DNA from: Lentimicrobiaceae bacterium
GTDB taxonomy: Bacteria; Bacteroidota; Bacteroidia; Bacteroidales; JAAYJT01
DNA length: 64,000 nt
Assembly: GCA_037445555.1 (NCBI GenBank)
Contig: JBBIKG010000007.1
Coordinates: 3,597-67,596, forward strand
Reading direction: 5' to 3'
The stretch's first letter is position 1. Each line of letters opens with the position of its first letter. Position numbers and translations under genes: made by a program. This document shows positions 7,166-42,223 of the stretch, in pieces. The notes beneath the pieces are model-generated. The model ran no database searches. It saw nothing but the letters and a program-made list of their open reading frames with translations, and was not told the DNA's origin.

Positions 7166-9358
7166 ATGGCAAAAAAACAAAAATCGAAAACCTCCAAACC
7201 ACTATTTGCAAAAAACAGTTTTGTCACTGCTGTTTTGTCTGTTTTCATTGATAATCCTACACGTGCATTCAATTTCAGGCAAGTCTCGGCCCACATGGGT
7301 GTCAGTGATAAAGCAAGCAAAGAGCTGGTGAAATCAATCCTTGAAACCCTCACGACCAAACGTGATGTGGTAGAATTGAACCGTGGCAAATATCAGCTCT
7401 CGCCCGACAAAATTCAAAAATATGTGCCTCAGACCATCGTCACCGGCACAGTCGACATGAAGCAGACTGGAAAAGCGTATATCATTACTCCCGAACTCGA
7501 TGAAGATGTCTTCATCGCCGCCAACAATACAGGCAGGGCTTTTCACGGCGATACTATAAGGGCACATTTGTTCCCTAAGCGCAAAGGGCGGAAAACAGAA
7601 GGACAGATCGTCGAAATCGTAAAGCGTGCCAGGACACGATTTGTGGGCACCTTGCAGCGAGGCTCCAAGTTCTCGTTTGTTGTATGTGATGATGTTTCTG
7701 TACCGGTTGATTTTATGGTACTCACCGAAAATACCAAGGGGGCGGCAAACGGGCAAAAAGTTGTGGTTAACCTAATGGACTGGCCTGAGCACGCAAATAA
7801 TCCGATTGGCGAGGTAGTAGAAGTTCTTGGTAAGCCTGGTGAAAACGAAGTGGAAATGAAATCGATTCTGGTAAATCACGATTTTCCTCTGGTGTTTCCG
7901 AAACAAGCCGAAACGGAAGCCTGGCGGATCCCCGAAGAAATACCGGAGCAAGACATCATGGCGCGCAGGGATTTTCGCAATATCCTTACGATCACCATAG
8001 ACCCCGAAGATGCCAAAGATTTTGACGATGCGTTATCGCTGAATATACTCGGCAATAACCTATACGAAGTGGGCGTACATATTGCGGATGTTTCGCATTA
8101 TGTAAAACCCGGAAGCGCTATTGATCACGAAGCGTATGAGCGAGGTACTTCAGTGTATTTGGTCGACCGTACCATACCCATGTTGCCCTCCAAGCTGTCT
8201 GAAAAAGTGTGTTCGCTCAGACCGAACGAAGATAAGCTCTGTTTTTCAGTGGTATTCACTATTGATGAACATGCCAGGGTAGTGGATCAATGGGTTGGCC
8301 GGACCATTATAAACAGCAATCGCAGGTTTAACTACGAAGAAGCACAGGCAATCATTGAGGGGGCTGAGGGAGATTACAAAACAGAGCTAATGGTGTTACA
8401 TGGGCTGGCACAAAAACTTCGGAACGAACGCTTTAAAGGTGGGTCGATCAATTTTTATTCGGTGGAAGTAAAATTTAAGCTGGATGAAAACGCTAAACCT
8501 ATAAGCACTTATATCAAGGAAAACAAGGAGGCAAACTGGCTGATAGAAGAGTTTATGCTTCTTGCCAATAAGCGGGTAGCTGAGCTTATTGGAATGAAAA
8601 AAGGAAATAGTACACCGAAAACATTTGTGTATCGCGTACACGATGTTCCGAACCCGGAAAAACTTTCCCAGTTCACTCAGTTCATTGGTAAACTGGGGTA
8701 TGGATTTAAAACATCAAACCGGAAGGGAATGGCGCAGTCTTTTAACCGGCTTTTTGAACTCATTGAGGGCAAAGGTGAACAAAATATGATCGAGACTATC
8801 GCCATTCGAACCATGGCAAAGGCAGAATACTCAACCAAAAACATTGGGCACTACGGACTCGATTTCAAATACTACACCCATTTTACCTCACCCATACGGC
8901 GGTATCCGGATTTAATGGTTCATCGTTTATTGGAGCGTTACCTGGCTGGTAAATCTTCTGTCAATGCCGAAGAATATGAACCCATATGTAGTCATTCATC
9001 TGAAATGGAGAAAAAAGCCGAACAGGCTGAACGCGACTCGGTGAAGTATAAACAAGCTGAATTCATGCTTGATAAAATAGGCCAGGAGTTTGATGGGTTG
9101 ATTTCAGGGGTGAGCAAATATGGAATTTACGTTGAAATTGAGGGAAACAAGTGCGAAGGCATGGTTTCGCTCAAATACATGAACGACGACTTTTACTATC
9201 TCGACGATGAAAACTACCGCGTAATTGGTCAACGTTACGGCCAGGAATACAAACTTGGTGACAGGGTGAAAATAAGGGTTCGTAAGGTCGATCTGCAGAA
9301 AAAACAGATGGATTTTGTGCTGGTGGAGCACGATAATCAGAAAAGCCGGAAAATATAG
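7166..9358 (+). CDS. rnr: Ribonuclease R (RNase II/VacB family 3'-5' exoribonuclease)
   Basis: 730 aa. RNB-domain motifs are present (ITIDPEDAKDFDDA, HFTSPIRRYPDLMVHR), with a C-terminal S1 domain (GLISGVSKYGIYVEIEGNKCEGMVS...GDRVKIRVRKVD). Confidence 0.93.
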   Translation: MAKKQKSKTSKPLFAKNSFVTAVLSVFIDNPTRAFNFRQVSAHMGVSDKASKELVKSILETLTTKRDVVELNRGKYQLSPDKIQKYVPQTIVTGTVDMKQTGKAYIITPELDEDVFIAANNTGRAFHGDTIRAHLFPKRKGRKTEGQIVEIVKRARTRFVGTLQRGSKFSFVVCDDVSVPVDFMVLTENTKGAANGQKVVVNLMDWPEHANNPIGEVVEVLGKPGENEVEMKSILVNHDFPLVFPKQAETEAWRIPEEIPEQDIMARRDFRNILTITIDPEDAKDFDDALSLNILGNNLYEVGVHIADVSHYVKPGSAIDHEAYERGTSVYLVDRTIPMLPSKLSEKVCSLRPNEDKLCFSVVFTIDEHARVVDQWVGRTIINSNRRFNYEEAQAIIEGAEGDYKTELMVLHGLAQKLRNERFKGGSINFYSVEVKFKLDENAKPISTYIKENKEANWLIEEFMLLANKRVAELIGMKKGNSTPKTFVYRVHDVPNPEKLSQFTQFIGKLGYGFKTSNRKGMAQSFNRLFELIEGKGEQNMIETIAIRTMAKAEYSTKNIGHYGLDFKYYTHFTSPIRRYPDLMVHRLLERYLAGKSSVNAEEYEPICSHSSEMEKKAEQAERDSVKYKQAEFMLDKIGQEFDGLISGVSKYGIYVEIEGNKCEGMVSLKYMNDDFYYLDDENYRVIGQRYGQEYKLGDRVKIRVRKVDLQKKQMDFVLVEHDNQKSRKI

Positions 9359-10023
9359 AAAAGTAAAATAACTGTTACAAGTGACGGAAGCAGGTTAACC
9401 ACGGCTATTCTTTTAATATCCAATATATTGAAGCCCATACCGATCAGCATTATTCCGCCGGCAGCAGTAATTTCATTAATCAAAGGCTCGGTGAGCAGGT
9501 GTTGGATATTGCCCGCAAACAACGTCAGCAAACTTTGATATATCAGCAGCGGAATGGATGAAAACATTACCCCGATACCCATGGCGGCAGAAAGTGCTAT
9601 GGATGAGAACCCATCCATAACCGACTTTGCCAGCAGAAGTTCAGAATTGTTTTTCATGCCTTCTTCAACTGCGCCAAGTATTGTCATACTACCCATGCAA
9701 AAAAGAAGAAATGAGGTGACAATGCCTTCGCTGAATTTTGAGCTGCTGATATTTAGTTTTTGCTTTATACGCTCACCAAGTCGGTTCATTCTGCTCTCCA
9801 GATTAATCATTTGCCCGATGATACCACCTGTGACCACGGAAAGAATTATTAATAGCCAGTTTTCGGATCTGAGGGACATGGAAATTCCAAAAAATACAGT
9901 TACCAGTCCGATCGCCTGAAACGTAATAGCGAGAAGTGAATCAGGCAGTTTTGATTTCAGCATCAGGCCGACGGCACTCCCGGCTAGCACTGTAGCCACG
10001 TTAACAAGAGTTCCTATAATCAT
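9337..10023 (-). CDS. DUF554-family integral membrane protein
   Basis: 228 aa with multiple TM segments. The N-terminus MIIGTLVNVATVLAGSAVGL matches my recollection of the DUF554 family pattern. Its 3' end overlaps the rnr 3' end by 22 bp. Confidence 0.75.
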   Translation of the reverse strand: MIIGTLVNVATVLAGSAVGLMLKSKLPDSLLAITFQAIGLVTVFFGISMSLRSENWLLIILSVVTGGIIGQMINLESRMNRLGERIKQKLNISSSKFSEGIVTSFLLFCMGSMTILGAVEEGMKNNSELLLAKSVMDGFSSIALSAAMGIGVMFSSIPLLIYQSLLTLFAGNIQHLLTEPLINEITAAGGIMLIGMGFNILDIKRIAVVNLLPSLVTVILLFYIFRLF

Positions 10024-11543
10024 TCTTCAAAAGGTGGTTTAAGTTTTACCCCGTCATATTTCACTTCCCGGCTATTACGGTATGTTATCACCAGCATCGG
10101 TGTACCGTCTTCTTCATATTTTACCCAATCTCCTTCTTTAATGCCGTTGACATAAAACTCTTCATCCCGTTTATTTCCGTTTTCCCAGTAGTAGGTGTGT
10201 TTTCCGTTGGGATTATCATCAATAAAACCACCTTCGAAACTCAATCGGCCATTCGCATAATAATGCTTCCATGTTCCGCTCTTCAACCCGGCCCGATAAT
10301 TGCCATCGATTTTGGTGTTATCAATACGGTAAACCCAAGGTCCTTCTTCCAAATCTTCAAAAAATTCTCCCTGAGAAATGATATCTCCATTATAATCAAA
10401 TTCGGTGGCCATTCCGTCCTTTAAACCATTGGTATAATATTCCTCAGCACGAAGGTTTCCGTTTTCAAAATACCACTCCCATTTTCCGATCAGTTTTCCT
10501 TCGTTGTTATACTCACCCTTTTGCTCCAAACTGCCACTTTCGTATTTAAACTGCCAAGCTCCAACTTTTCTGCCTCCGGCATACCTGCCCTCGGCACGCA
10601 AACTTCCGTTGGCAAAAAACTCTTTCCACATCCCTTCTTTGGTTCCGTCTTCGTTCAGAATTCCTTCAGAAAGCCTGATTCCCTGGACAAACACGCTAGC
10701 CGAAATAATTTTTCCCTCTTCGTCATATTCACGTCTGATTCCGTCCGGTAGGTTTTCACGAAAGGTAGTCAAACTTTTTACTTTTCCGTTTGGGTAATAT
10801 TCCGTAACAATAGTTAATTTGCTAATTTCTGGAACATCGACTATTTCAATATCTTCTGAATATTTCTTCAAGTCGGTAAGGTTTCCTTTCCGATCGTACG
10901 TTTTAAAATATCCATCTCTTTTTCCGGCTCTGTAGGTACCTTCTGACTGCAGTTTGCCATCCTCGTAGAAAAACTTCCACCTGCCCTGTCGTAACCCGTT
11001 CAGATCGGTTCGGTTGATACTTTCACGACTTACCACGTACCCCCTCCGGTATTCTGTTACTACGATGATGTTGCCGTTTTTGTCATACTCAAAACCATTA
11101 CCATTTTCAAGCTCATCCATAAAGGGAACTACCCTTTTAATCTTACCATCAGCGTAATAATAGGTAGTAAGACCTTCTTTTTTATCCATGACAAAGTTTT
11201 CGTTCACCGTTTCGTCTTCCCGGTAGGTGATACGAAGACCGTTTTTCTTTCCACCGTTATAATTGATTTCCATCATTTTCAGGCCATCCTCCCGGTAGAA
11301 CACCCATTTTCCTTCAAGTTGAAAATCAACTCTGTTGCCTTCCGATTTTAAAACCCCAGATTCAAAATATGTTTTCCAGTATCCGTCGGGTTTCCCCTGT
11401 CGCATCGTACCTTCGCTCGCAATGTTACCATTGGGATAATAAAATAAAGCATACCCCTCGGCCACCTGAAAATTTTGGCTGTTCACATACTTACACATTA
11501 TACACCATGCGGCCAGTGTCAGTATGGTAATTAATTTTTTCAT
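10020..11543 (-). CDS. Secreted MORN-repeat-variant (YwqK-like) repeat protein
   Basis: 507 aa. After a signal peptide (MKKLITILTLAAWCIMC) come about 20 tandem units of roughly 23 aa, of the form G-x-W-x-x-[FY]-[FY]-x-N-G-x-[LI]-x-x-E-G-x-Y-x-x-G-K-x-D-G. The stop overlaps the DUF554 start codon (ATGA). Confidence 0.85.
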   Translation of the reverse strand: MKKLITILTLAAWCIMCKYVNSQNFQVAEGYALFYYPNGNIASEGTMRQGKPDGYWKTYFESGVLKSEGNRVDFQLEGKWVFYREDGLKMMEINYNGGKKNGLRITYREDETVNENFVMDKKEGLTTYYYADGKIKRVVPFMDELENGNGFEYDKNGNIIVVTEYRRGYVVSRESINRTDLNGLRQGRWKFFYEDGKLQSEGTYRAGKRDGYFKTYDRKGNLTDLKKYSEDIEIVDVPEISKLTIVTEYYPNGKVKSLTTFRENLPDGIRREYDEEGKIISASVFVQGIRLSEGILNEDGTKEGMWKEFFANGSLRAEGRYAGGRKVGAWQFKYESGSLEQKGEYNNEGKLIGKWEWYFENGNLRAEEYYTNGLKDGMATEFDYNGDIISQGEFFEDLEEGPWVYRIDNTKIDGNYRAGLKSGTWKHYYANGRLSFEGGFIDDNPNGKHTYYWENGNKRDEEFYVNGIKEGDWVKYEEDGTPMLVITYRNSREVKYDGVKLKPPFEE

Positions 11544-11551
11544 GGTGCGTG

Positions 11552-11981
11552 TTGTTAATGCAATGTTATGAATAAATCGTTCAGGTGCATAAGGGGAAGT
11601 TTGAACGCACTATATTCAATTTATTTTTTAAAAGAATTATGTTGATGTAATTTAGCTTGTTAATTGTGTTGAATAAACGGGAACCGATTATTTGGAAAAT
11701 AGGTTATTAAGAAAAAATTAACAGCATTTTTAATAAACATATTTTTAAGTAACAGTTAAACAGTATTTTAAGAATTTAGATTGTTAATTAGTTTTAAGAG
11801 GGTTGTTCATAAAATATTTATAAATCGAACAGATGTTTTGTTAGTTGAGTTATTGATAAATACTCATAACCTCTTCTTTTTTCCTTGAAAGGATGATATC
11901 AGTGTTTTTGTTGTTGAAAAATTGTGTTTATCAAAAATTGATAACATATTTACTAACAGGATATGAAACATGTTTGTTAAT
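11552..11981 (+). repeat. Four same-orientation copies of TTGTTAAT dispersed in an AT-rich spacer
   Basis: Exact 8-mers are at 11552-11559, 11657-11664, 11781-11788 and 11974-11981. Near-copies TTGTTAGT (about 11838) and TTGTTGAA (about 11910) are also present. Confidence 0.6.
11928..11944. repeat. Inverted repeat TTATCAA-AAA-TTGATAA
   Basis: Perfect 7-bp arms separated by 3 nt. A further TTGATAA half-site lies at about 11854-11860. Confidence 0.6.
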
Positions 11982-12090
11982 AAGGATGCCTATTCGGTTG
12001 GTATAGAAAAAGAATTAGACCAGATACTGAATAAGACTATTACCGGGAACTCTAAAGGGGTTTGTGTGAGGTTTGATTGATTAGTTTGCT

Positions 12091-12098
12091 TACTTTTG
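12091..12098 (+). promoter_or_regulatory. -7 promoter box TAnnTTTG (TACTTTTG) upstream of rpiB
   Basis: Exact consensus match, 36 nt upstream of the ATG at 12134. Confidence 0.45.
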
Positions 12099-12133
12099 AG
12101 GATTATTAATGATTGATCCAAATAGGTTCTTCG

Positions 12134-12571
12134 ATGAGAATAGCCATAGGAAGCGACCACGCAGGTTTTTTTCTGAAGAAAATAATATTTGATGTGCTGA
12201 AGGAAAAGGAGATCGAAGTAATTGATTTTGGCACACAATCGACACAGAGTGCAGACTATCCTGACTTTGCTCACCCGGTGGCAAAAGCCATCAATGATAA
12301 GGTATTTGATTTTGGAATTCTGATTTGTGGAAGCGGTAACGGAGTGACTATTACGGCCAATAAATATTTGTTTGTGCGTTGTGCGCTTTGCTGGAATCCA
12401 GAAATTGCACGCCTTGCCCGGTTGCATAATGATGCCAACATACTTGCACTACCCGGGCGATTCATTGATATAGATCTTGCTCTCGAGATCGTTAAAACAT
12501 TTTTGAACACTGCATTTGAAGGTGGCCGGCACACAGCTCGTGTTGCCAAAATTTGTAAAATGATCGTATGA
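12134..12571 (+). CDS. rpiB: Ribose-5-phosphate isomerase B
   Basis: MRIAIGSDHAGFFLKK...ILICGSGNGVTITANK...ALPGRF is the RpiB/LacAB family pattern. I chose the ATG at 12134; the track start at 12113 adds 7 residues. Confidence 0.92.
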   Translation: MRIAIGSDHAGFFLKKIIFDVLKEKEIEVIDFGTQSTQSADYPDFAHPVAKAINDKVFDFGILICGSGNGVTITANKYLFVRCALCWNPEIARLARLHNDANILALPGRFIDIDLALEIVKTFLNTAFEGGRHTARVAKICKMIV

Positions 12572-13962
12572 GCCATATGAACACACCATATCATAACTTT
12601 ATCGAGGCATCGGAGAAAGCTGCGTTCGACCGTGAGCATCGGCGGAAGATTGATTACAATATTTCGAAATACGATCAGGCAGTAGTTCAGGGAAAACGCC
12701 AGTTCAGCAATCTTGAAATGGCACGCAAAAAAGCCGCGGTAATTAAATCAAAGGTCATAAGCAATCTTGAAAAATCCCTGATAGAGTTCGAAAAGAATTT
12801 TGACGAAAAAGGAGGCAAGGTAATTTGGGCGCTTGATGCACAATCGGCCGTGAAGGCTATTTATGAAATTGCAAAAACCTCGGGTTCAAAGCTTGTAGTC
12901 AAGAGCAAAAGCATGACCACCGAGGAGGTCGAGATAAATAAGCACCTTGAGAAAAAAGACATTGAAGTTTTAGAGACAGACCTCGGGGAGTTCATAGTGC
13001 AGCAGCGAAAAGAACCACCCTATCACATTGTTACTCCTGCCATGCATCTTTCAAAAGAAGATGTATCTGAGTTGTTTCATCTTAAATATAATCTTGACGC
13101 GTCAAGCACCCCCGAACAGGTAACCGCCTTTGTTAGAAACCTTATCCGTGAAAAATTTGAAAAATCGGATATAGCCATTACGGGAGCCAATTTTCTAATT
13201 GCCGATACGGGCTCCGTCGCCATAACTGAGAATGAAGGAAATGCGATGATGGCAATCTCATTTGCACGGATACACATCGTCATCGCCGGTATTGAAAAAA
13301 TCATCCCTTCATTATCGCAGCTAGATCTATTCTGGCCGTTGCTTGCCACACACGGAACAGGCCAGCTGATAAGCGTCTATAATTCAATTGTGAGCGGTCC
13401 TAAAACAGACGCTGAACCTGATGGTCCAGAAAAGATGTTTGTGATATTGCTCGATAACGGACGCACAAATTTATTGGCCCAGAAGCAGCAGCGAAAAGCG
13501 TTGTGGTGCATACGATGCGGTGCCTGCCTGAATGCTTGCCCCGTGTATCGGTACATTGGCGGGCACGCCTATGGAACAACCTACAGCGGACCCATTGGAG
13601 CGGTCATCACTCCTTGGCTCAAAGGAATGGATGAATATAAGCACCTGAGTTTTGCCTCAACGCTTTGCGGCAAATGTACCGATGTATGTCCTGTCAAGAT
13701 AAATCTGCATGAGCAACTGGTTTATAACCGGCAGGAAGCTGTGAAGCAAAAATACTATACCCGGGGGGAAGCTGTAAGCATGTGGACATTCAAGACCATC
13801 ATGAGCAGTGTAAACCCGGATGCCATTGGAGCACGTACCAAAAACCGGCTGCTTACTCACTTTTTTGCAAAACCCTGGGGAAACAGGCGGGCATTACCTA
13901 TTGTTAAGCAACAATCATTCAGGCAGTTGTATAATAAACACCTGAATAATAAGAGCGACTAA
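12568..13962 (+). CDS. LutB-like LUD-domain iron-sulfur protein (lactate utilisation protein B family)
   Basis: 464 aa. An N-terminal LUD/DUF162-like region (KSKSMTTEEVEINKHLE...ITGANFLIADTGS) is followed by two 4Fe-4S ferredoxin motifs, CIRCGACLNACP and CGKCTDVCP. The start overlaps the rpiB stop (ATGA). Confidence 0.8.
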   Translation: MSHMNTPYHNFIEASEKAAFDREHRRKIDYNISKYDQAVVQGKRQFSNLEMARKKAAVIKSKVISNLEKSLIEFEKNFDEKGGKVIWALDAQSAVKAIYEIAKTSGSKLVVKSKSMTTEEVEINKHLEKKDIEVLETDLGEFIVQQRKEPPYHIVTPAMHLSKEDVSELFHLKYNLDASSTPEQVTAFVRNLIREKFEKSDIAITGANFLIADTGSVAITENEGNAMMAISFARIHIVIAGIEKIIPSLSQLDLFWPLLATHGTGQLISVYNSIVSGPKTDAEPDGPEKMFVILLDNGRTNLLAQKQQRKALWCIRCGACLNACPVYRYIGGHAYGTTYSGPIGAVITPWLKGMDEYKHLSFASTLCGKCTDVCPVKINLHEQLVYNRQEAVKQKYYTRGEAVSMWTFKTIMSSVNPDAIGARTKNRLLTHFFAKPWGNRRALPIVKQQSFRQLYNKHLNNKSD

Positions 13963-13973
13963 CCCACGTACTC

Positions 13974-14465
13974 TTAGTGAATAACCGTACGGCTCAGAAT
14001 GGCGATCAGCAAATCCCTGACTGTATGCGGACCCAGATTATTGAGAAAATCAGAGATTTTATTTTTGCGGTCGGCTAGATCATCTGTTTGTTTGAGGATG
14101 GCAGCAAACTCACGATATTGTGAAACCCGCAGCACTTCTTCAATCGATTGCTGAACTACTGAAGGCTCCGCTGCCGGTGACAATTGAGGCGAAGGAAACA
14201 ATCGCAGCTCCTCGATAGCTGTTTTCAATATTTCGGCCCCCTTTTTTCGGGCTGTAAGCATAGGCGACAGGCCGGATGTATCACGCAGCGTCCAGCTGCT
14301 GTAGTCAATCGATATTAGTTTAAGCTGTTCAGTTTTTGTAGAGTTTTTACCAAAAATCCGGTCCAAAATCATCTGGGTTGTGCTTTTCCAGCTGGCAAAG
14401 TCAAAAGCCGGCTCATCGAGCTTTCTCAGTTGCTTCTCGAGCAGTTCTATTTCTTTGTCATTCAT
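13974..14465 (-). CDS. Hypothetical protein
   Basis: 163-aa ORF, predicted soluble and helical, with no motif I recognise. It fills the gap between lutB-like and dnaG on the opposite strand. Confidence 0.55.
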   Translation of the reverse strand: MNDKEIELLEKQLRKLDEPAFDFASWKSTTQMILDRIFGKNSTKTEQLKLISIDYSSWTLRDTSGLSPMLTARKKGAEILKTAIEELRLFPSPQLSPAAEPSVVQQSIEEVLRVSQYREFAAILKQTDDLADRKNKISDFLNNLGPHTVRDLLIAILSRTVIH

Positions 14466-31794: not shown

Positions 31795-34700
31795 ATGTCA
31801 TCAACACCAACATACCAAGTTCTGATATCCAAACTCGACGCTTTCATCCGAAAATATTACCGGCATAGGATGATGAAGGGCCTGATTTATTCCATAGCCA
31901 TCTTGATTGCAGCATTTCTTATGATGACGCTTCTTGAGTACTTTGGACACTACGGCCAAACAATGCGCGCAATCTTATTTTACGGATATATCTTGTCCAC
32001 TTCGCTGGTGATATTTATATTCATACTGGTACCCGGTGCGAAATTGCTAAAGCTGGGAAAAATTATCACACACGAACAGGCAGCAGTTATTATAAGCAGT
32101 CATTTCAGTGAGATTGGCGACCAGCTCATCAACGCGCTGCAACTTGCTGCCATTGGGACGCGTGACGATTGTGACGCACAGTTTTTACAGGCCGCCATTG
32201 AACAAAAAACCCGCAATATTCAGCACATCCCCTTTAATGCAGCCATCGACCCTAAGGAAAACACTCGAAAGCTGCCGCTGGCACTCATACCTGCCGCCAT
32301 CTTGTTACTTCTTTTCATTCTGGCTCCAACCTTTATCAAAGAACCCGCCCGGCGAATCGCACAATACAGCACGCACTTCGAAAAGCCGATGCCTTTTTCG
32401 TTCAATCTGCTCAATGAAAAGCTCGAAGCTATGCAGGGCGATGATATTGAGCTGAAAATTGAAATTCAGGGTAACCAGCTGCCCGCAGAAGTTTATATTA
32501 CCTCGACATCGGGCCCATTGAAGGCATTGAAAAGTTCGATCAACAAATTCTCCTATCGCTTTCGGAATGTGCAAAAATCTTTTGACTTCAAACTGGAAGC
32601 CGGAGGTTACCGAAGTCGTCAGTTTTCTGTAAGTGTCTACCCAAAACCTGTGATTGTCAGCTATACGGTCACACTTGACTACCCAGCATATACCGGACGC
32701 CCAAATGAACAATTGGTGAACACAGGCGACTTTACCGTACCCGAGGGAACAAGAATATTATGGGAATTCAGTGTAAAGGCTTGCGATTCAATCGTTTTTT
32801 CTCAAGCTCCTGAAAATTCAGTGAAAAAGATCCCCGCAAGGAATGAGGTGTTTGCTTTTAATTCAACTGCCCAAAAACCTTTTAGCTATGTTGTTAAACC
32901 TATCAATATACACTCCATAAATGCGGACTCGCTTATTCATTTTGTTGGCGTCATCGCCGACCAGTACCCGGAAATTCAGATCGAAGGCTATGATGATCCA
33001 AACAATACACGAATGAGATATTTTACAGGGATAATCAGAGATGATTATGGTTTTGAAAAGCTGTTGTTCCATTATATCAAACGAAATCTCGATGATCCTG
33101 ACCTTGTGACCGAGAATAATACGATGGAGGTAAAGATCGATAAGAAACTCGCTGCACAAACCTTCTACCATAATGCTGATTTTTCGGATATAGAACTAAA
33201 CCCTGGCGATAGGATCGAGTTTTGGTTTGAAATATGGGACAATGACCAGGTAAATGGCAGTAAGGCAGCGCGGACAGGGGTCGGCATGATTGAAATACCT
33301 GACATTGAGCAGATGGAGCAGATGGCCAATCAGCAACGCGACGATTTAGGAAAAGAGGCCGCCAAGTTATTTGCTGAAATTCAAAAAGTGCAAAACGAAA
33401 TCAATAAGCTTCAGAAAAATATCCTCGAAAAGGAAAGCATCGGGTGGGAGGAAAGCCAACGACTACAAAAATTGCTTGAGAAACAGCAGGAACTGCAGCA
33501 AGCTGTTAATCAGCTGAGCACAGGAAATAAGAAGCTAAACCAGATGCAGCAAGAGTATAGGGCTTATGATGAAGACATTATCCGTAAGCAACTTGACATA
33601 CAAAAGCTTTTTGATGAGATAATGACCGACGATATGAAAAAGATGATCGAGGAGCTTCAGAAAATGCTGCAGGAGATGAACAAGGATAATATGCTCGATG
33701 CGTTACAAAACATGAGAACGAGCAACGAGGAACTTTCGAAAAGCCTTGATCGCTCTCTTGAGCTGTTCAAACAACTGGAACTTGAAAAGATAATTAAAGA
33801 AACGGCCGATAAATTAGGTGAGTTAAGCAAGAACCAAAAGGATGTCTTGCGCGATACGCAGAATAAAGAATCAGAAAATCTGCAACTTATTAACAAACAA
33901 ACCGATATCAATCGCGAATTTGAGAACGTTAAAGAGTCGCTGCAGCAGATGGATCGCAAAAACAATGAGCTCGATGATCCGAACAGCCTCATGGATACAA
34001 AAGGCCATCAGGATAAAATAGATCAGTCGCTTAATGAAAGTCTGAAGCAGCTTCAGAAGAAAAGCCCTTCGCAAGCTGCACCCAATCAGAAAGAAGCCGC
34101 AGATCAGATGGAAAAGCTAGGAGGCGACTTGATGGATATGCTTACGGAGATGCAAAATGAACAGTTGGGCGAGGATATACAAATGTTGAGGAAGCTTTTG
34201 GAAAACCTGGTAGATATTTCATTTGATCAGGAAAATTTAATGAACACTACCCTGAAAACAAATCCGGTTGATCCCAGGTTTGTGGGATTACTGAATATGC
34301 AGAATAAGCTTAAAGAAGACCTGCGTCTTGTGGAGGATTCATTACAGGCACTGGCCAAGCGACAGATAAGTATTGAAACATTCGTTCTGAGTGAGATCGC
34401 ACAAATCAATCTGAATGTACGCGAAGCGATTTCCTCGCTCGAAAACCGGTCACTTAATGTAGCAGCCGCCAAACAGCAATTCGTAATGACATCCGTAAAT
34501 AACCTAGCTTTAATGCTTGCTGAAGCTATGCAAAAGATGAATGATCAGATGGCGTCTAGTAGTGCGGGAAAAGGGGGTTCGTGTCCTCGCCCCGGTATGG
34601 GAGGTAAGGGAAAACCCTCGATGAGCAATATGCGCGATTTGCAGCAACAACTTAACCAGCAGATGCAAAACCTGAAGCAGCAGATGCAGCAAGGTCAGCA

Positions 34701-35142
34701 AAGTCCCGGAGGCCGGCAGATAAGTGAACAGTTCGCTCGAATGGCCGCTCAGCAGGAAGCGCTTCGAAGGCAGCTTCAGAGCTATATGGACGAGTTGAAG
34801 AGCGAAACAGGAAAAGACGATTCGGGGATTAGGGAAACACTAAAGGAAATGGAACGAACCGAACAGGATCTGGTCAACAAACGCCTGTCGAATGAAACAC
34901 TTACGAGACAGCAGCGCATCGAGACACGATTGCTCGAAAGCGAAAAAGCCCTTCTGGAAAGAGAAAAGGAGCAAAGACGAGAATCAACGGAAGCACGCGA
35001 CTATCCACAAAATGCCCCTGACTCGATCCTGGAAATGTTTCGCCAGAAAATGAAGGAACGCGAAATGCTGCGAACCGTTCCTCCACAGTTCAACTCCTAC
35101 TACAGGGGCAAAACAAACGAATACTTCCTTAAACTTCAATAG
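31795..35142 (+). CDS. Large membrane-anchored coiled-coil protein of unknown function, possibly DUF4175-like
   Basis: 1115 aa. Two or three N-terminal TM helices are followed by a beta-rich middle region and about 600 aa of E/K/Q/L-rich heptad sequence, including a Q-rich tract (QQQLNQQMQNLKQQMQQGQQ). The DUF4175 label is from memory of Bacteroidota annotations and is not verifiable here. Confidence 0.75.
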   Translation: MSSTPTYQVLISKLDAFIRKYYRHRMMKGLIYSIAILIAAFLMMTLLEYFGHYGQTMRAILFYGYILSTSLVIFIFILVPGAKLLKLGKIITHEQAAVIISSHFSEIGDQLINALQLAAIGTRDDCDAQFLQAAIEQKTRNIQHIPFNAAIDPKENTRKLPLALIPAAILLLLFILAPTFIKEPARRIAQYSTHFEKPMPFSFNLLNEKLEAMQGDDIELKIEIQGNQLPAEVYITSTSGPLKALKSSINKFSYRFRNVQKSFDFKLEAGGYRSRQFSVSVYPKPVIVSYTVTLDYPAYTGRPNEQLVNTGDFTVPEGTRILWEFSVKACDSIVFSQAPENSVKKIPARNEVFAFNSTAQKPFSYVVKPINIHSINADSLIHFVGVIADQYPEIQIEGYDDPNNTRMRYFTGIIRDDYGFEKLLFHYIKRNLDDPDLVTENNTMEVKIDKKLAAQTFYHNADFSDIELNPGDRIEFWFEIWDNDQVNGSKAARTGVGMIEIPDIEQMEQMANQQRDDLGKEAAKLFAEIQKVQNEINKLQKNILEKESIGWEESQRLQKLLEKQQELQQAVNQLSTGNKKLNQMQQEYRAYDEDIIRKQLDIQKLFDEIMTDDMKKMIEELQKMLQEMNKDNMLDALQNMRTSNEELSKSLDRSLELFKQLELEKIIKETADKLGELSKNQKDVLRDTQNKESENLQLINKQTDINREFENVKESLQQMDRKNNELDDPNSLMDTKGHQDKIDQSLNESLKQLQKKSPSQAAPNQKEAADQMEKLGGDLMDMLTEMQNEQLGEDIQMLRKLLENLVDISFDQENLMNTTLKTNPVDPRFVGLLNMQNKLKEDLRLVEDSLQALAKRQISIETFVLSEIAQINLNVREAISSLENRSLNVAAAKQQFVMTSVNNLALMLAEAMQKMNDQMASSSAGKGGSCPRPGMGGKGKPSMSNMRDLQQQLNQQMQNLKQQMQQGQQSPGGRQISEQFARMAAQQEALRRQLQSYMDELKSETGKDDSGIRETLKEMERTEQDLVNKRLSNETLTRQQRIETRLLESEKALLEREKEQRRESTEARDYPQNAPDSILEMFRQKMKEREMLRTVPPQFNSYYRGKTNEYFLKLQ

Positions 35143-35147
35143 GCAGT

Positions 35148-35576
35148 ATGATTACTTATCAAAGTATTAACATTTCATATCGCCTGAAAAACCGGAGGAA
35201 ACTTTCACAATGGATACGACAGTGTGCAGAAGAGACTAAGATGAGAATTGGAGAGTTGGCTATTGTGCTTTGTGATGACGTTACATTGTTGGAATATAAT
35301 GTTAAATATCTAAAACACAACACATTAACTGATATTATAACGTTTAATTACAATGAAGGTAGCGTGTTGTCAGGGGATATAATCATCAGCCTGGATCGGA
35401 TAAGAGAAAATGCTTACAGGTATGACGTACCAATGGACCTGGAGTTGAAGCGAGTCATTATCCACGGCGTACTACATCTTTTGGGATTTAGGGATAAAAT
35501 AAAGGAGGAGAAGGATCTGATGCGCCGCATGGAAGATGAATATCTGCAGAAGTACGATTTACTGTTTAGGGGGTAA
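35148..35576 (+). CDS. ybeY: rRNA maturation endoribonuclease YbeY
   Basis: 142 aa with the zinc-binding motif [11 protein letters not shown] near the C-terminus. Confidence 0.92.
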
Positions 35577-35594
35577 AGTTTTTGTAAGCCCAGA

Positions 35595-35610
35595 TGTTTC
35601 ACGTGGAACA
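35595..35610. repeat. CACGTG-centred palindrome TGTTTCACGTGGAACA (one mismatch) immediately upstream of mnmG
   Basis: 15 of 16 positions are palindromic. Its centre lies 14.5 nt upstream of the mnmG ATG (35617). Confidence 0.7.
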
Positions 35611-35616
35611 ATTACG

Positions 35617-37488
35617 ATGTTGCAGGAGTATGACATAATTGTGGTAGGAGCAGGGCATGCCGGCTCGGAAGCCGCTGCCGCCGCGGCTACCATGGGCTCC
35701 AAAGTGTTGTTGGTTACCATGAATATGGGCACAATTGCACATATGAGCTGCAATCCGGCAATGGGCGGAATTGCAAAGGGTCAGATTGTTCGAGAAATAG
35801 ATGCGCTCGGGGGATTTTCAGGCATTGTCACCGACCGAACAATGATACAATTCCGGATGCTTAATAAATCAAAAGGGCCTGCCCTGTGGAGTCCCCGTGC
35901 ACAGAATGATCGGGCAAAGTTCTCGGAGGAATGGCGTAAAGTGCTTGAAAATATTCCCTCGCTTCATTTTTGGCAGGATATGGTCACCGGGTTGATCGTA
36001 GAGAGCCAAAAGGTGTGTGGTGTAACTACGGCAATGGGAATTGAAATACGGGCAAAATCAGTTATCCTTACAAATGGCACATTCTTGAATGGTATAATAC
36101 ATATAGGAACAAAAAGCTTCGGGGGGGGGCGTATTGGCGAAAAGGCCGCCATCGGGCTGACCGAAAATCTGAAGAAGCTGGGGTTTGATGCCGCACGAAT
36201 GAAAACCGGAACACCTGTACGTATTGATGGCCGAAGTATCGATTTCGGAAAGCTTGAAGAGCAAAAAGGCGACGCTAATCCCGGGAAGTTTTCATATACA
36301 CACACGCCGCCTCTCACAAAACAGCGAAGTTGTTACATCACGTACACCAATTCGGAGGTTCATGATATATTGCGAACCGGGTTTCATCTTTCGCCGATGT
36401 TTAGTGGGCGTATCGAAGGCATCGGTCCGCGCTACTGCCCCAGTGTGGAAGATAAGATAGAAAGATTTTCGCATCGCGACCGGCATCAGCTCTTCATTGA
36501 GCCTGAAGGGTGGAACACAATCGAATACTATCTGAACGGATTCAGCTCATCCCTTCCCGAAGACATCCAGCTTAAAGCACTTAATAAGATCCATGGACTT
36601 GAAAACGCCAGAATCTTTCGGCCTGGTTATGCAATCGAGTACGATTATTTTCCTCCGACGCAATTAAGATATACCCTCGAAACAAAACTCATTGAAAACC
36701 TATATTTTGCAGGTCAAATAAATGGTACCACCGGGTATGAGGAAGCCGCCGCCCAGGGTTTAATAGCGGGCATAAACGCACACCTTAAGCTCCATGATCA
36801 ACAAGAATTTATTTTGGGCCGTGCCGATGCCTATATAGGTGTGCTGATTGATGATTTGATAACAAAAGGCGTCGACGAACCCTACCGTATGTTTACCTCG
36901 CGCTCTGAATACCGGCTGCTTCTGCGTCAGGATAATGCCGATATGCGATTAACCCGTCGAGGATATGATATAGGCTTGGCTGACATAGAGCGGATGAAGC
37001 ACGTTCAGGAAAAAGATCAGAAAGCCAGCAGCATCATCGCACATCTGAAAAGTAACAACGTAAGCCCGGAAGTTATTAACTCGTTACTGAATATGAAAGA
37101 TACCCAGCCTGTGAGCCAAAAGGTCAGGTTGTCAAATATACTGCTCAGGCCACAGATTGAATTCGTTGAAATGGTGCATCATATTCCTGCGCTTGAAAAA
37201 TTTCTTGCACAGATAGATGCCTTGGACGAAAGCATCATTGAGTCGGTGGGCATAATGATTAAATATGAAGGCTATTTGGTGAAGGAACAGGAGCTGGCCA
37301 CGAAACTTTCGAAATATGAAAACATCCCATTAAAGGAGGATTTTGACTACCAAACGCTGCAATCGGTATCCTACGAGGCACGCGAAAAACTTAACCGCAT
37401 TAAACCGCGCACCATTGGCCAGGCATCCCGCATAAGCGGCGTGTCGCCGGCCGACATCTCGGTGCTGCTTGTTTTCTTAGGCAGGTGA
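35617..37488 (+). CDS. mnmG: tRNA uridine-5-carboxymethylaminomethyl(34) synthesis enzyme MnmG (GidA)
   Basis: [24 protein letters not shown] (FAD-binding), plus [21 protein letters not shown] and [17 protein letters not shown] chose the ATG at 35617; the track start at 35536 overlaps ybeY. Confidence 0.95.
36121..36129 (+). repeat. G9 homopolymer tract inside mnmG (codons GGG GGG GGG)
   Basis: Nine consecutive G residues, in frame, encode the GGG of ...[11 protein letters not shown].... Confidence 0.9.
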
Positions 37489-37493
37489 TAACA

Positions 37494-37511
37494 TTGTTTC
37501 ACGTGAAACAA
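37494..37511. repeat. Perfect 18-bp palindrome TTGTTTCACGTGAAACAA between mnmG and the methyltransferase gene
   Basis: It is its own reverse complement. Its centre lies 14.5 nt upstream of the ATG at 37517, the same spacing as the copy at 35595. Confidence 0.85.
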
Positions 37512-37516
37512 AACCC

Positions 37517-38419
37517 ATGAGACATAATACCACTGAGCATGCTCCCGGCTGCACGCTGTGCGGAAGCCAACATTTTAATCTATACCTGGAGACAACGGAT
37601 TATTTTCTCACGAAGGAAAGGTTTGATATATACCAATGCGGGAAATGTAAGGTTTTATTTACGTGGCCAGTGCCAGAAGAGGACCAGCAGGCACGGTATT
37701 ACGAATCCGAACAATACTTCAGCCACAATACACCTACCATTTCCATTACCCGGATGATATATGATTTTGCCAGGCAAATAATGGTCAGGAAAAAGTTACG
37801 ACTCGTGTCGCGTCAGTCGCCCCAAGGGAAAATTCTGGATATTGGTTGTGGCACAGGAGAATTTTTGCATCAGTGCGTGAAGAAAGGCTGGGATGGCTAC
37901 GGAGTTGAGCCCAGCCGGCAGGCGCGTGAATTTGCGATAGGTAAACACGGCCTGAGGATTTATGACCTGAGTGAAATGATGAATTTGAGTGATGGCACGT
38001 TTGATGTCGTCACTATGTGGCATTCACTTGAGCACACTGGCACGCCGGCAGATTATCTTAAAATGGCTTTCCGTTTACTTACCCCCTGTGGCACCCTGGT
38101 TGTAGCCCTGCCAAATCCGGAGTCATGGGATGCTTTTCGATATTCCGCGCATTGGGCCGCTTGGGATGTGCCCCGGCATTTATTTCATTTCACTCGTGGA
38201 GCCATCAGCCAATTGGCTGAGACAAACGGATTCACTCTTAAACATATTTATCCTCTCAAGCTGGACGCTTATTATGTTTGTCTACTGAGTGAAAGATATT
38301 CGAAAAGGAAGTTCGGCCTTTTCCGCGGAAGCCTTGCCGGGCTGACATCCAACATTAATGCCAGCAAAAACAATAATTATTCAAGCCTGATTTATATCTT
38401 TAGCAAATTAATGCATTAG
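37517..38419 (+). CDS. Class I SAM-dependent methyltransferase with N-terminal Cys4 zinc-ribbon-like motif
   Basis: The SAM-binding motif I is ILDIGCGTGEFL. N-terminal CTLCGS...CGKCKV pairs are present. 300 aa. Confidence 0.82.
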   Translation: MRHNTTEHAPGCTLCGSQHFNLYLETTDYFLTKERFDIYQCGKCKVLFTWPVPEEDQQARYYESEQYFSHNTPTISITRMIYDFARQIMVRKKLRLVSRQSPQGKILDIGCGTGEFLHQCVKKGWDGYGVEPSRQAREFAIGKHGLRIYDLSEMMNLSDGTFDVVTMWHSLEHTGTPADYLKMAFRLLTPCGTLVVALPNPESWDAFRYSAHWAAWDVPRHLFHFTRGAISQLAETNGFTLKHIYPLKLDAYYVCLLSERYSKRKFGLFRGSLAGLTSNINASKNNNYSSLIYIFSKLMH

Positions 38420-38536
38420 GGCTCTTTTGCGCGATTTTTGTGCACTATGAAGGCTGTGGCCACCCTGCCTCCGAAGTGCGTTTAAAAGCGGTCTAATGAA
38501 GTCGGGTTATAAGTGCGTTATATTCAGATCAATGCA

Positions 38537-41500
38537 ATGAGAATTTGGAAGCTGTTGTTAAACAAAGGCGTAAAACGGTCAATATTGTTCGCCCTGCTGC
38601 TCATCATGCTTGCCGTAAGCACTGAGTGGATATATAGATCATCTCAGATACCGAAAAGGCAATATGAAAGATTTAGCGATGAGCTTAGCCGCCAGAGATC
38701 GAAGCTGGGAACGCTTTTGGATGAGCTGAAAATGAACTCCGGAATAGATTTCTTTCAAACCGCCTTAACAAAATCAAAAAATTCGGTCCAGCCTGCATTG
38801 TTTGTATACGAAAACGACACCCTCAGTTTTTGGTCAACACCCGCGATTTCAGTACCACAGATTTACGATTCCCTGTTTTTCGGGAGCGATTTCATTGAGA
38901 CCTCAAACGGGCTGTTTATTTGTGAAAGCCTGGAATTAGAAAGCAAAACCCTGATCGGCCTTATGCTGATAAAGCATAATTATCTGTATGAAAACGAATA
39001 TCTCCAAAATAAATTTAATCCCGTTTTCAAATTATCACACACAACCCTAATAGGCTATAAACCAGCGAGATACGATATATTCGACACGAAGGGTACATTC
39101 GCCTTTGCCCTGCATTTTCCGGATATAATATCCCCGCCATCGTATATCATTTTTATTCTCTTCGCATTATATCTTGGGGCTATAGTGCTGATATTTAGTG
39201 CCATAAGATACGCTTATCAGGGCTTGTCCGTTTTGATTAAAAACAAATATCTGCTTCTGGCGGCCTTATGGGTTGATTTGTTGCTGGTACGCACACTGAT
39301 TTTTTTCTTTAAAATACCCGGAATACTCTACGAATCTGAACTGTTCAGCCCAACCACACTTGCCATAAGCAGCCTGATTCCCTCCCTGGGCGATCTGATC
39401 GTGAATGCGGTTATGCTCGTATTTATTGCATGGAGTTTTTATAACCTGCCCCAGCCGGTCAAACAGACAGGAAGCAGAATCGGGAGGTGGTTTACAGGCT
39501 TTTCCCTCTTGTTCCACGTTCTGATATTTTTTCAACTCTTTCTGATGCTGCTTCGGAGCATCATATTTGATTCGACCATTCCGCTCGACCTAAATAATAT
39601 TTTTAGCCTAAACGCTTACAGCGTGCTGGGGTTTCTGTCTGTTGCATGCATATTATTGTCGCTTTTCCTAGTGGCTTTTCGCCTGGTTATGATGGCAAAA
39701 GCCTTGGTAAATAAAACTACAAAGCTATGGCTGCTTATTGCCATTACGGTGCTGCTATATGGCACCCTATCCTTTTTAATCGGAAAGTTTAACTTGCTCC
39801 ACCTGACAACAGCCACCATTTTTATCATTCTCACTGCCGTAATGTTTCGCCGCGGAACCACTCTGCGTGGCACAGGCCAGACAATGGTATATCTGGCGCT
39901 GTTCTCATTTGTCCTGGCATTTACACTAAGGGGGTTCAAAAATGAAAAGGAACATCAGGAAAGGATGCTTCTGGCCATGGACCTGAGTGGCGAACGGGAT
40001 AAAATAGCGGAATACAGATTTGCGCTGATACGAGATTCACTGCAGGTTGACCCTGTTGTATCAGGTATGCTGACAGGATCTAGCGAGCCGGTGCAAACCG
40101 AAGATTCCATTGTGAGCTACATCACCCAAAAATACTTTGATAGATTCTGGCAGAAATACGATGTGCTGATTACCATCTGCTACCCTGGCAAAATACTTGA
40201 AATTAAACCGGGAAATTTTGTGGTAGGATGCTCGGAGTATTTCAACAATTATATTGACACATTTTCAGAGCCGACGGGATTGAAGGATATGTATTTCCTT
40301 TTTCCGGGTACCGGAGAGATTAACTATCTGGCCCGGATCAGTTATCAAAACAAGACAGCGCCCGTGGCTGATTCGGTGCAAGTGTATTTTGAAATACTCT
40401 CAAAAACCATTAAAAAAGGCCTTGGCTATCCTGAACTGCTCATTGATGCAAAAAACGAAAAAACCCCTGACCTTGCCAGTTACAGCTATGCCATGTTTCA
40501 CAACGGCATCATGACTAAAAGCTTTGGGCGATACCCCTATGGCAAGCATGAACAACAACGAGCCCCGGCTGACACAGAATATGAATTTTACCGAAGCAAC
40601 CAATACAGCCATTTGTTCTACCGCACAGGGAGTTTAGGTTATATTATTGTTAGCCTGCCCGAACCAACTCTGATCGAAATAATTGCACCTTTTTCCTATC
40701 TATTCATCTTTTTTGGGCTTATCGCACTGATATTTTCGCTGGTTGTTCGCGCTCCGGCAGGTCTATGGGTTATACCCGCCAGTTTTCGCAACCGCATTCA
40801 GTATTCAATGTTTCTGGTTATTCTTCTTTCTTTTATCATGATCGGGATAAGCACCATGATGTATCTCGTGAGGCTCAACTATAACAAGAACCTAAGCATC
40901 TTGAATGAGAAAAGCCATTCGGTGCTACTCGAACTTGAACACAAGTTATCAGGCCGAAAACAACTGAGCAGGAGCGAAACAGGTTACTACACAGATTTAT
41001 TGACGAAATTTTCGCAAATATTCTTTACCGATATTAATCTGTTTGATACCCGGGGAAAATTACTTGCCACAAGCCGCTGGCAGATATTCAGTGATGACCT
41101 TATATCACAAAACATGAACCCCGTGGCATTCAACAAAATGGTCAACCAACGAAGTGCCTACCACATCCACAATGAATCCATAGGGAAATATCAGTATTTA
41201 TCTGCCTACCTGCCCTTCAGCAACGACCAGGGAAGCCTGATCGGCTATGTAAATTTGCCCTATTTTGCACGACAAAGTGAACTGCGACAGGAGATTTCCA
41301 CATTTCTGATAACGTTTACCAATATTTATGTGGTGCTGATGGCTGTTGGGCTGCTGCTGGCTCTTGTGCTTTCAAATTACCTGCTTAGGCCGCTCACCCT
41401 TTTAAAGACTTATCTGCAGAGGACAAAAATCGGGAAGCCTAACCAGCCCATTCCGTGGAGCAGCCAGGATGAAGTGGGGCAGTTGATAAGCCAGTACAAT

Positions 41501-42223
41501 CGTATGATTGATGAACTGGCCATGAGTGCGGAAGTGCTGGCGAGGTCTGAAAGGGAAAATGCCTGGCGAGAGATGGCACGCCAGGTAGCACATGAAATTA
41601 AAAACCCGCTTACTCCGATGAAGCTGAACATTCAGCATCTGTATAAGGCATGGAATGAAAAAGCGCCAGGCTGGGATCAGCGCTTGCTGAAATTTACACG
41701 CACAATGACCCAGCAAATTGATGTGCTGGCCGAAATAGCCTCTGCATTTTCTGACTTTGCCACCATGCCCGGCACCAACAATCAGCGGCTTGATTTGAAA
41801 GCCCTTGCTGTATCGGCAGCATCTCTTTACCAGGGAAGTGAAAACATTTCGATTGAAGTAAGTGCCGAAAATCCGAATGCCGACTACTCGTTCTACGGAG
41901 ACGAAAAACAGATGATAAGGGTATTTAATAATCTGATTAAGAATGCTGCATACGCCATTCATGACCAGCCTGAAGGCAAGATTGAAATCCGTTTTTATTC
42001 CACCCCGGGGCTAATTCATATTCACGTCAGCGACAACGGAACGGGCATGGCACGGGAGCAGCAAGAACTTATTTTTACCCCCTATTTTACTACAAAAAGC
42101 AGTGGAATGGGACTTGGGCTGGCCATTGTAAGAAATATAATCAAAAGCAACGGGGGTGAAATCAGTTTTGAATCTGAGCTGGGAAACGGAACAACATTTC
42201 ATATCACTTTGCCGGTTCGGTAA
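38537..42223 (+). CDS. Large multi-pass membrane sensor histidine kinase (NtrY-like HAMP-HisKA-HATPase C-terminus)
   Basis: About 900 aa of N-terminal TM-rich sensor region are followed by a HAMP-like segment (LLRPLTLLKTYL...QDEVGQLISQYNRMIDEL). The H-box is HEIKNPLTPMKL, the N-box NNLIKNAAYA, and the G-boxes DNGTGM and GMGLGLAIV. I chose the ATG at 38537; a GTG at 38513 is possible. Confidence 0.88.
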   Translation: MRIWKLLLNKGVKRSILFALLLIMLAVSTEWIYRSSQIPKRQYERFSDELSRQRSKLGTLLDELKMNSGIDFFQTALTKSKNSVQPALFVYENDTLSFWSTPAISVPQIYDSLFFGSDFIETSNGLFICESLELESKTLIGLMLIKHNYLYENEYLQNKFNPVFKLSHTTLIGYKPARYDIFDTKGTFAFALHFPDIISPPSYIIFILFALYLGAIVLIFSAIRYAYQGLSVLIKNKYLLLAALWVDLLLVRTLIFFFKIPGILYESELFSPTTLAISSLIPSLGDLIVNAVMLVFIAWSFYNLPQPVKQTGSRIGRWFTGFSLLFHVLIFFQLFLMLLRSIIFDSTIPLDLNNIFSLNAYSVLGFLSVACILLSLFLVAFRLVMMAKALVNKTTKLWLLIAITVLLYGTLSFLIGKFNLLHLTTATIFIILTAVMFRRGTTLRGTGQTMVYLALFSFVLAFTLRGFKNEKEHQERMLLAMDLSGERDKIAEYRFALIRDSLQVDPVVSGMLTGSSEPVQTEDSIVSYITQKYFDRFWQKYDVLITICYPGKILEIKPGNFVVGCSEYFNNYIDTFSEPTGLKDMYFLFPGTGEINYLARISYQNKTAPVADSVQVYFEILSKTIKKGLGYPELLIDAKNEKTPDLASYSYAMFHNGIMTKSFGRYPYGKHEQQRAPADTEYEFYRSNQYSHLFYRTGSLGYIIVSLPEPTLIEIIAPFSYLFIFFGLIALIFSLVVRAPAGLWVIPASFRNRIQYSMFLVILLSFIMIGISTMMYLVRLNYNKNLSILNEKSHSVLLELEHKLSGRKQLSRSETGYYTDLLTKFSQIFFTDINLFDTRGKLLATSRWQIFSDDLISQNMNPVAFNKMVNQRSAYHIHNESIGKYQYLSAYLPFSNDQGSLIGYVNLPYFARQSELRQEISTFLITFTNIYVVLMAVGLLLALVLSNYLLRPLTLLKTYLQRTKIGKPNQPIPWSSQDEVGQLISQYNRMIDELAMSAEVLARSERENAWREMARQVAHEIKNPLTPMKLNIQHLYKAWNEKAPGWDQRLLKFTRTMTQQIDVLAEIASAFSDFATMPGTNNQRLDLKALAVSAASLYQGSENISIEVSAENPNADYSFYGDEKQMIRVFNNLIKNAAYAIHDQPEGKIEIRFYSTPGLIHIHVSDNGTGMAREQQELIFTPYFTTKSSGMGLGLAIVRNIIKSNGGEISFESELGNGTTFHITLPVR

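Follow-up and report, generated by a model that had tools for sequence, protein, structure and literature searches.

The window analysed here, a 64,000-nucleotide (64-kb) stretch of contig JBBIKG010000007.1 from a Lentimicrobiaceae bacterium, carries the gene mnmG (gidA) between ybeY and a gene encoding a class I S-adenosylmethionine (SAM)-dependent methyltransferase. Each of the two short spacers flanking mnmG holds a palindrome centred on CACGTG. The two palindromes lie 1.9 kb apart, one on either side of mnmG, and very probably represent chromosomal parS, the sites at which the partition protein ParB (Spo0J) nucleates (Table 1). The distance from the dyad centre to the ATG of the following gene is 14.5 nt at both sites, with the ATGs at 35617 and 37517. 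Both starts are also those of gene calls made independently for the contig, the start at 35617 being called by NCBI and Logan; the longest open reading frame of mnmG begins at 35536 and overlaps ybeY, the real start being 35617. A preliminary description of this DNA had reported the palindromes, their equal distances to the start codons, the identity of the flanking genes and the lack of a third copy in 64 kb. Re-reading of the window reproduced the coordinates and sequences of both palindromes exactly to the base as well as the 14.5-nt distance, the assignments of ybeY, mnmG/gidA and the methyltransferase agree with Pfam, and no third copy emerged from looser scans.

Table 1. Putative parS sites and flanking genes in the window
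Feature	Position	Strand	Remarks
Putative parS site 1, TGTTTCACGTGGAACA	35595..35610	.	In the 40-nt ybeY-mnmG spacer; CACGTG core at 35600-35605
Putative parS site 2, TTGTTTCACGTGAAACAA	37494..37511	.	Perfect 18-bp palindrome in the 28-nt mnmG-methyltransferase spacer; CACGTG core at 37500-37505
ybeY	35148..35576	+	Pfam YbeY, E = 1e-25; upstream of site 1; context only
mnmG (gidA)	35617..37488	+	Pfam GIDA, E = 1e-164; bracketed by both sites; context, not part of a site
Class I SAM-dependent methyltransferase, 300 aa	37517..38419	+	Pfam Methyltransf_23; downstream of site 2; context only

The occurrence of the palindrome pair is well beyond chance. The 16-mer was matched twice in the window with up to three mismatches allowed, against 0.23 matches expected, and none of 100 shuffles gave two. 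No further copy of the 18-mer within four mismatches, and no further match within two mismatches of a relaxed consensus, was found in the 64 kb.

The sequences of both sites are those of parS. All 16 positions of the site 2 core (37495-37510) agree with the idealised parS TGTTTCACGTGAAACA. Site 1 reads TGTTCCACGTGAAACA on the reverse strand and fits the consensus TGTTNCACGTGAAACA, varying only at the degenerate position. A review table lists TGTTNCACGTGAAACA as the chromosomal parS consensus of Bacillus subtilis, Corynebacterium and Burkholderia, together with TGTTTCACGTGAAACA as the parS of Hyphomonas and GTTTCACGTGAAAC as that of Mycobacterium, and documents the consensus for Firmicutes, Actinobacteria and Proteobacteria. 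TGTTTCACGTGAAACA is also the idealised consensus used in ParB-parS crystallography, and was the query in parS scans of gut bacterial genomes, that of Bacteroides caecimuris among them. In the full-text literature, the matches listed for the 12-mer core TTTCACGTGAAA are all concerned with ParB and parS, Noc or chromosome origins. The preliminary description had recognised no described regulator site in the motif, a claim that does not hold for a sequence long described as parS. Its suggestion of a palindromic DNA site for a dimeric DNA-binding protein stands; the proposed new operator covering translation-initiation regions gives way to a parS centromere, whose protein would be a clamp for segregation and condensin loading rather than a dedicated transcription factor. 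The palindromes of the window are thus already known in kind, as exact-consensus copies of the textbook parS.

Beyond the sequence and its palindromic symmetry, the window resembles the chromosomal parS of the B. subtilis type in having, within its 64 kb, two copies 1.9 kb apart, and in their adjacency to gidA/mnmG. This gene is a classical origin-region gene, and in Pseudomonas it belongs to a gidAB-parAB locus, an arrangement from which the Bacteroidota loci examined here differ by having no parAB within 10 kb. The window sites also differ in that both are intergenic and very near start codons, and binding of ParB to them is predicted from sequence. ParABS homologues have been reported in all 12 of 12 OMM12 genomes, and the origin domain of Bacteroides caecimuris is marked by parS clusters.

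Conservation of the palindrome at this locus is deep. The lineage of the window organism is isolated, with the best relatives of its methyltransferase showing no more than 49% identity. In the three nearest relatives, still distant ones (L003, L004 and L006), the methyltransferase is 46-48% identical to that of the window, and the order of genes encoding a DUF4175 protein, YbeY, MnmG, the methyltransferase and a histidine kinase is common to all three. The preliminary description had proposed a comparison of the spacers in related Bacteroidota, and this comparison revealed conservation of the palindrome at both positions: GTTTCACGTG(A/G)AAC is present in both mnmG-flanking spacers of each of the three relatives, while the remaining spacer sequence is unalignable. 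The persistence of the palindrome at both positions, while the spacers around it diverged, indicates that the element is real and under strong selection.

The association extends across the phylum. We surveyed mnmG and 10 kb on either side of it in 80 Bacteroidota loci, 1.51 Mb in total, drawn from Bacteroidales, Flavobacteriales, Cytophagales, Sphingobacteriales and Chitinophagales, and counted a match as a site when no more than one position other than 5 and 12 was mismatched. Chance alone would yield 0.24 sites in the 1.51 Mb. The 26.7 kb that lie no more than 160 bp from an mnmG end contain 113 parS sites and the rest, 1.49 Mb, contains 26, which amounts to an approximately 240-fold enrichment, and most of the 26 far sites are still about 1-5 kb from mnmG. 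At least one site near mnmG was found in 66 of the 80 loci, upstream of the gene in 58, downstream in 37 and on both sides in 29. Random scatter of the motif, including inside genes, was named in the preliminary description as an outcome that would speak against a functional element; in the surveyed loci the sites are instead concentrated at the mnmG ends, though three loci have intragenic ones. The loci devoid of parS belong mainly to Saprospiraceae (L014, L021, L026 and L033), Lewinellaceae (L079) and Sediminibacterium (L065), with no site within 170 bp of mnmG or in the fetched flanks, and these lineages may have lost or relocated the centromere. Our search of the literature on parS with mnmG and on parS with Bacteroidetes found no description of the association in Bacteroidota.

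The arrangement of the sites around mnmG shows some further regularities. Two tandem sites are present upstream of the gene in 18 loci (including L011, L012, L013, L018, L019, L022, L031, L051 and L072), with centre-to-centre spacing of 33-69 bp, mostly 37-49 bp and most commonly 43-47 bp. The parS-like sites inside mnmG (L016 at about 11470, L040 at about 1528 and L055 at about 11388) occupy similar positions in unrelated loci, approximately +1390 to +1480 nt, which suggests that the intragenic placement is recurrent or ancient.

Any palindrome that is transcribed can, in principle, fold into a hairpin, and the preliminary description had proposed a 7-bp mRNA hairpin with a 4-nt loop, positioned 6 nt before each start and serving in processing, possibly by YbeY, or in stability or translational control. 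The location of both copies on the sense strand just before the ATGs, in the window and in its nearest relatives, is consistent with such an element, and a U-G wobble would result from the A-to-G change in site 1. The two types of constraint can be told apart in loci oriented by mnmG. An RNA hairpin tolerates T5/G12, which forms a U-G wobble, and does not tolerate C5/A12, which forms a C-A mismatch, whereas a symmetric dimer site treats both combinations alike. Positions 5 and 12, given as 'N' in the published consensus, are where the variation among the 113 sites is concentrated; the other 14 positions, in sites counted with at most one mismatch, are nearly invariant in sequence, and not merely in pairing. 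On the gene-sense strand, the pairs at positions 5 and 12 are CG in 39 sites, TA in 29, CA in 24 and TG in 21. The C/A variants are as common as the T/G variants, and RNA pairing is therefore not under selection: the constraint is of the DNA type and strand-symmetric. The 41-nt segments around the two sites fold at -4.5 and -6.2 kcal/mol, no better than shuffled sequences (z = +0.40 and -1.05), and the minimum-energy fold is the proposed hairpin at neither site. An Rfam scan of 35000-38600 with E values up to 10 gave no match, which likewise counts against a structured RNA, and sites elsewhere are found far from starts, in tandem or inside the mnmG coding sequence. With symmetric variation, unexceptional folds and a variable distance to the ATG, we regard the hairpin as scarcely credible. 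The suggested link to YbeY falls with it, and no functional tie between ybeY and the motif was found.

The equal spacing to the two start codons, which the preliminary description had singled out, is true of the window and roughly so of the three nearest relatives, where both dyad centres lie 13.5-15.5 nt from the ATG. It does not extend to the phylum: the distance from the site to the mnmG ATG ranges from 11.5 to 145 nt, and from the downstream site to the start of the next gene from 14.5 to over 100 nt. By contrast, the downstream site keeps to a narrow range of distances from the mnmG stop codon, mostly 8.5-17.5 nt. The palindrome is near both ATGs because a 16-bp site is packed into spacers of 28 and 40 nt, and not through any translational action. 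That both distances are 14.5 nt is a local outcome of compact spacers inherited within the clade, rather than a property of the element.

Among the readings that retain a DNA site, the sites might be parS with a secondary cis-regulatory effect, such that ParB nucleating at, and spreading from, sites located after the mnmG promoter but before its start codon, and immediately before the methyltransferase gene, would dampen the expression of mnmG and the methyltransferase or couple it to the cell cycle. The sites would then be operator-like, in line with the DNA hypothesis of the preliminary description. A Bacteroidetes-type -7 box (TAnnTTTG) is found upstream of the mnmG-proximal parS, at approximately 10-15 nt in L003 and L004 and approximately 25 nt in L006, so that ParB would sit at or just past the transcription start. 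The placement beside mnmG is conserved phylum-wide, which would suit such a role but is equally explained by a need of parS for a stable, origin-proximal neighbourhood of essential genes. Silencing by ParB at parS in plasmid P1 and by ParB1 in Vibrio cholerae offers an analogy: parS lies near promoters or starts there as here, and spreading of ParB could in principle lower the transcription of both mnmG and the methyltransferase gene. The chromosomal ParB of V. cholerae represses a few genes in its spreading zone, and related effects are reported in Pseudomonas aeruginosa and Streptococcus pneumoniae. Chromosomal silencing by ParB is nevertheless weak and confined to few genes where it is known, including V. 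cholerae, and the distance of the sites to the ATG, and hence to the promoter, varies across the same 11.5-145 nt. For the window, a regulatory effect of this kind is conceivable but unlikely.

An operator that has the parS sequence by coincidence and serves some unrelated, undescribed dimeric transcription factor would also be a palindrome of this length near promoters and starts, and so would a Noc-type nucleoid-occlusion site. The former would have to account for a match to parS at 16 of 16 positions. The regulon-like spread of sites that an operator would suggest is not seen: the window holds no other copy, and in 1.5 Mb of related loci the sites are grouped around mnmG. The Noc-binding site (NBS, TATTTCCCGGGAAATA) resembles the window palindromes in being a 16-bp palindrome with outer T-rich and A-rich arms, bound by a helix-turn-helix protein of the ParB family. 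It differs at the central specificity positions, which are CCCGGG in the NBS and the parS-specific CACGTG in the window, so that the window sites are not NBS. Noc is not known outside Firmicutes. Both variants are accordingly highly improbable. Motifs of the Rex, CRP/FNR, LexA, NrdR, BirA and PadR types do not fit the palindrome. Two overlapping weak DnaA boxes marking oriC were likewise considered and rejected, as the window displays neither DnaA-box enrichment nor a skew switch.

Assignment of the palindromes as parS leads to a specific expectation of their function. In ParABS systems, the steps of half-site reading, clamp formation, ParA-driven segregation and loading of SMC are established. 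At each palindrome of the window, the helix-turn-helix of one ParB monomer would read each half-site, and ParB bound to cytidine triphosphate would close into a clamp at parS, slide onto neighbouring DNA and build a partition complex. Through this complex ParA would segregate the origin region; the complex might also load the SMC condensin, as it does in many bacteria, to organise the origin domain. The two nucleation sites predicted here, 1.9 kb apart, would flank mnmG. Binding of ParB, clamp loading and a role in segregation are predictions for the window organism, for which we assume a cognate ParB encoded in the genome.

Several results weigh against the parS assignment. A search for parA and parB that combined Pfam on 15 open reading frames of the window, six-frame translation motifs (GERRxRA and KGGxGKT) and tblastn with approximate Spo0J and Soj probes detected neither gene in the 64 kb or, across 84 loci, up to 10 kb from mnmG. 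Neither a GC-skew switch nor a cluster of DnaA boxes is present in the window, where 15 DnaA-box matches were counted and 16.6 would be expected.

The two sites probably identify the origin-proximal partition locus of a metagenome-assembled Bacteroidota genome that is otherwise uncharacterised. Across the phylum, parS sites border mnmG in 66 of the 80 loci, most of those examined, though parAB is not nearby, and the combination of mnmG and parS may serve as a handy landmark for origin domains in metagenome-assembled genomes of Bacteroidota. A bolder proposal is that the Bacteroidota centromere has been anchored to mnmG, rather than to parAB, since early in the history of the phylum, and that the sites are placed so exactly, one separating the mnmG promoter from the start codon and one separating mnmG from its partner methyltransferase, that occupancy by ParB gates the expression of both genes. 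If this were true, gating of a tRNA-modification pair by ParB would tie the fidelity of translation to the chromosome cycle; we consider the proposal a long shot. As a discovery, the palindromes themselves carry little weight, and calls of unknown palindromes should be compared with the parS consensus.

Some minor observations concern the neighbouring genes. The syntenic block shared with the relatives occupies 31795-42223 in the window, where the DUF4175-like protein has 1115 aa and the histidine kinase approximately 1230 aa; in L003, L004 and L006 the block is then followed by a Polysacc_synt gene. The deposited mnmG call of L006 (635 aa, start at 2064) places parS inside the coding sequence, in the region 2064-2099, and probably overextends the gene by about 12 codons. 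In 50 of 84 Bacteroidota loci, mnmG is followed directly by a co-oriented homologue of the methyltransferase (Methyltransf_23), making the two a conserved gene pair. The N-terminus of the methyltransferase in the window displays a CxxC...CxxC motif, and a role of this enzyme in the tRNA U34 modification pathway of mnmG is only a guess. Elsewhere in the window, the region 8000-14000 has a GC content of 0.406 against approximately 0.46 in the remainder and a locally negative GC skew, and includes a 570-bp gap between divergently oriented long open reading frames, one ending at 11543 and the other starting at 12113.

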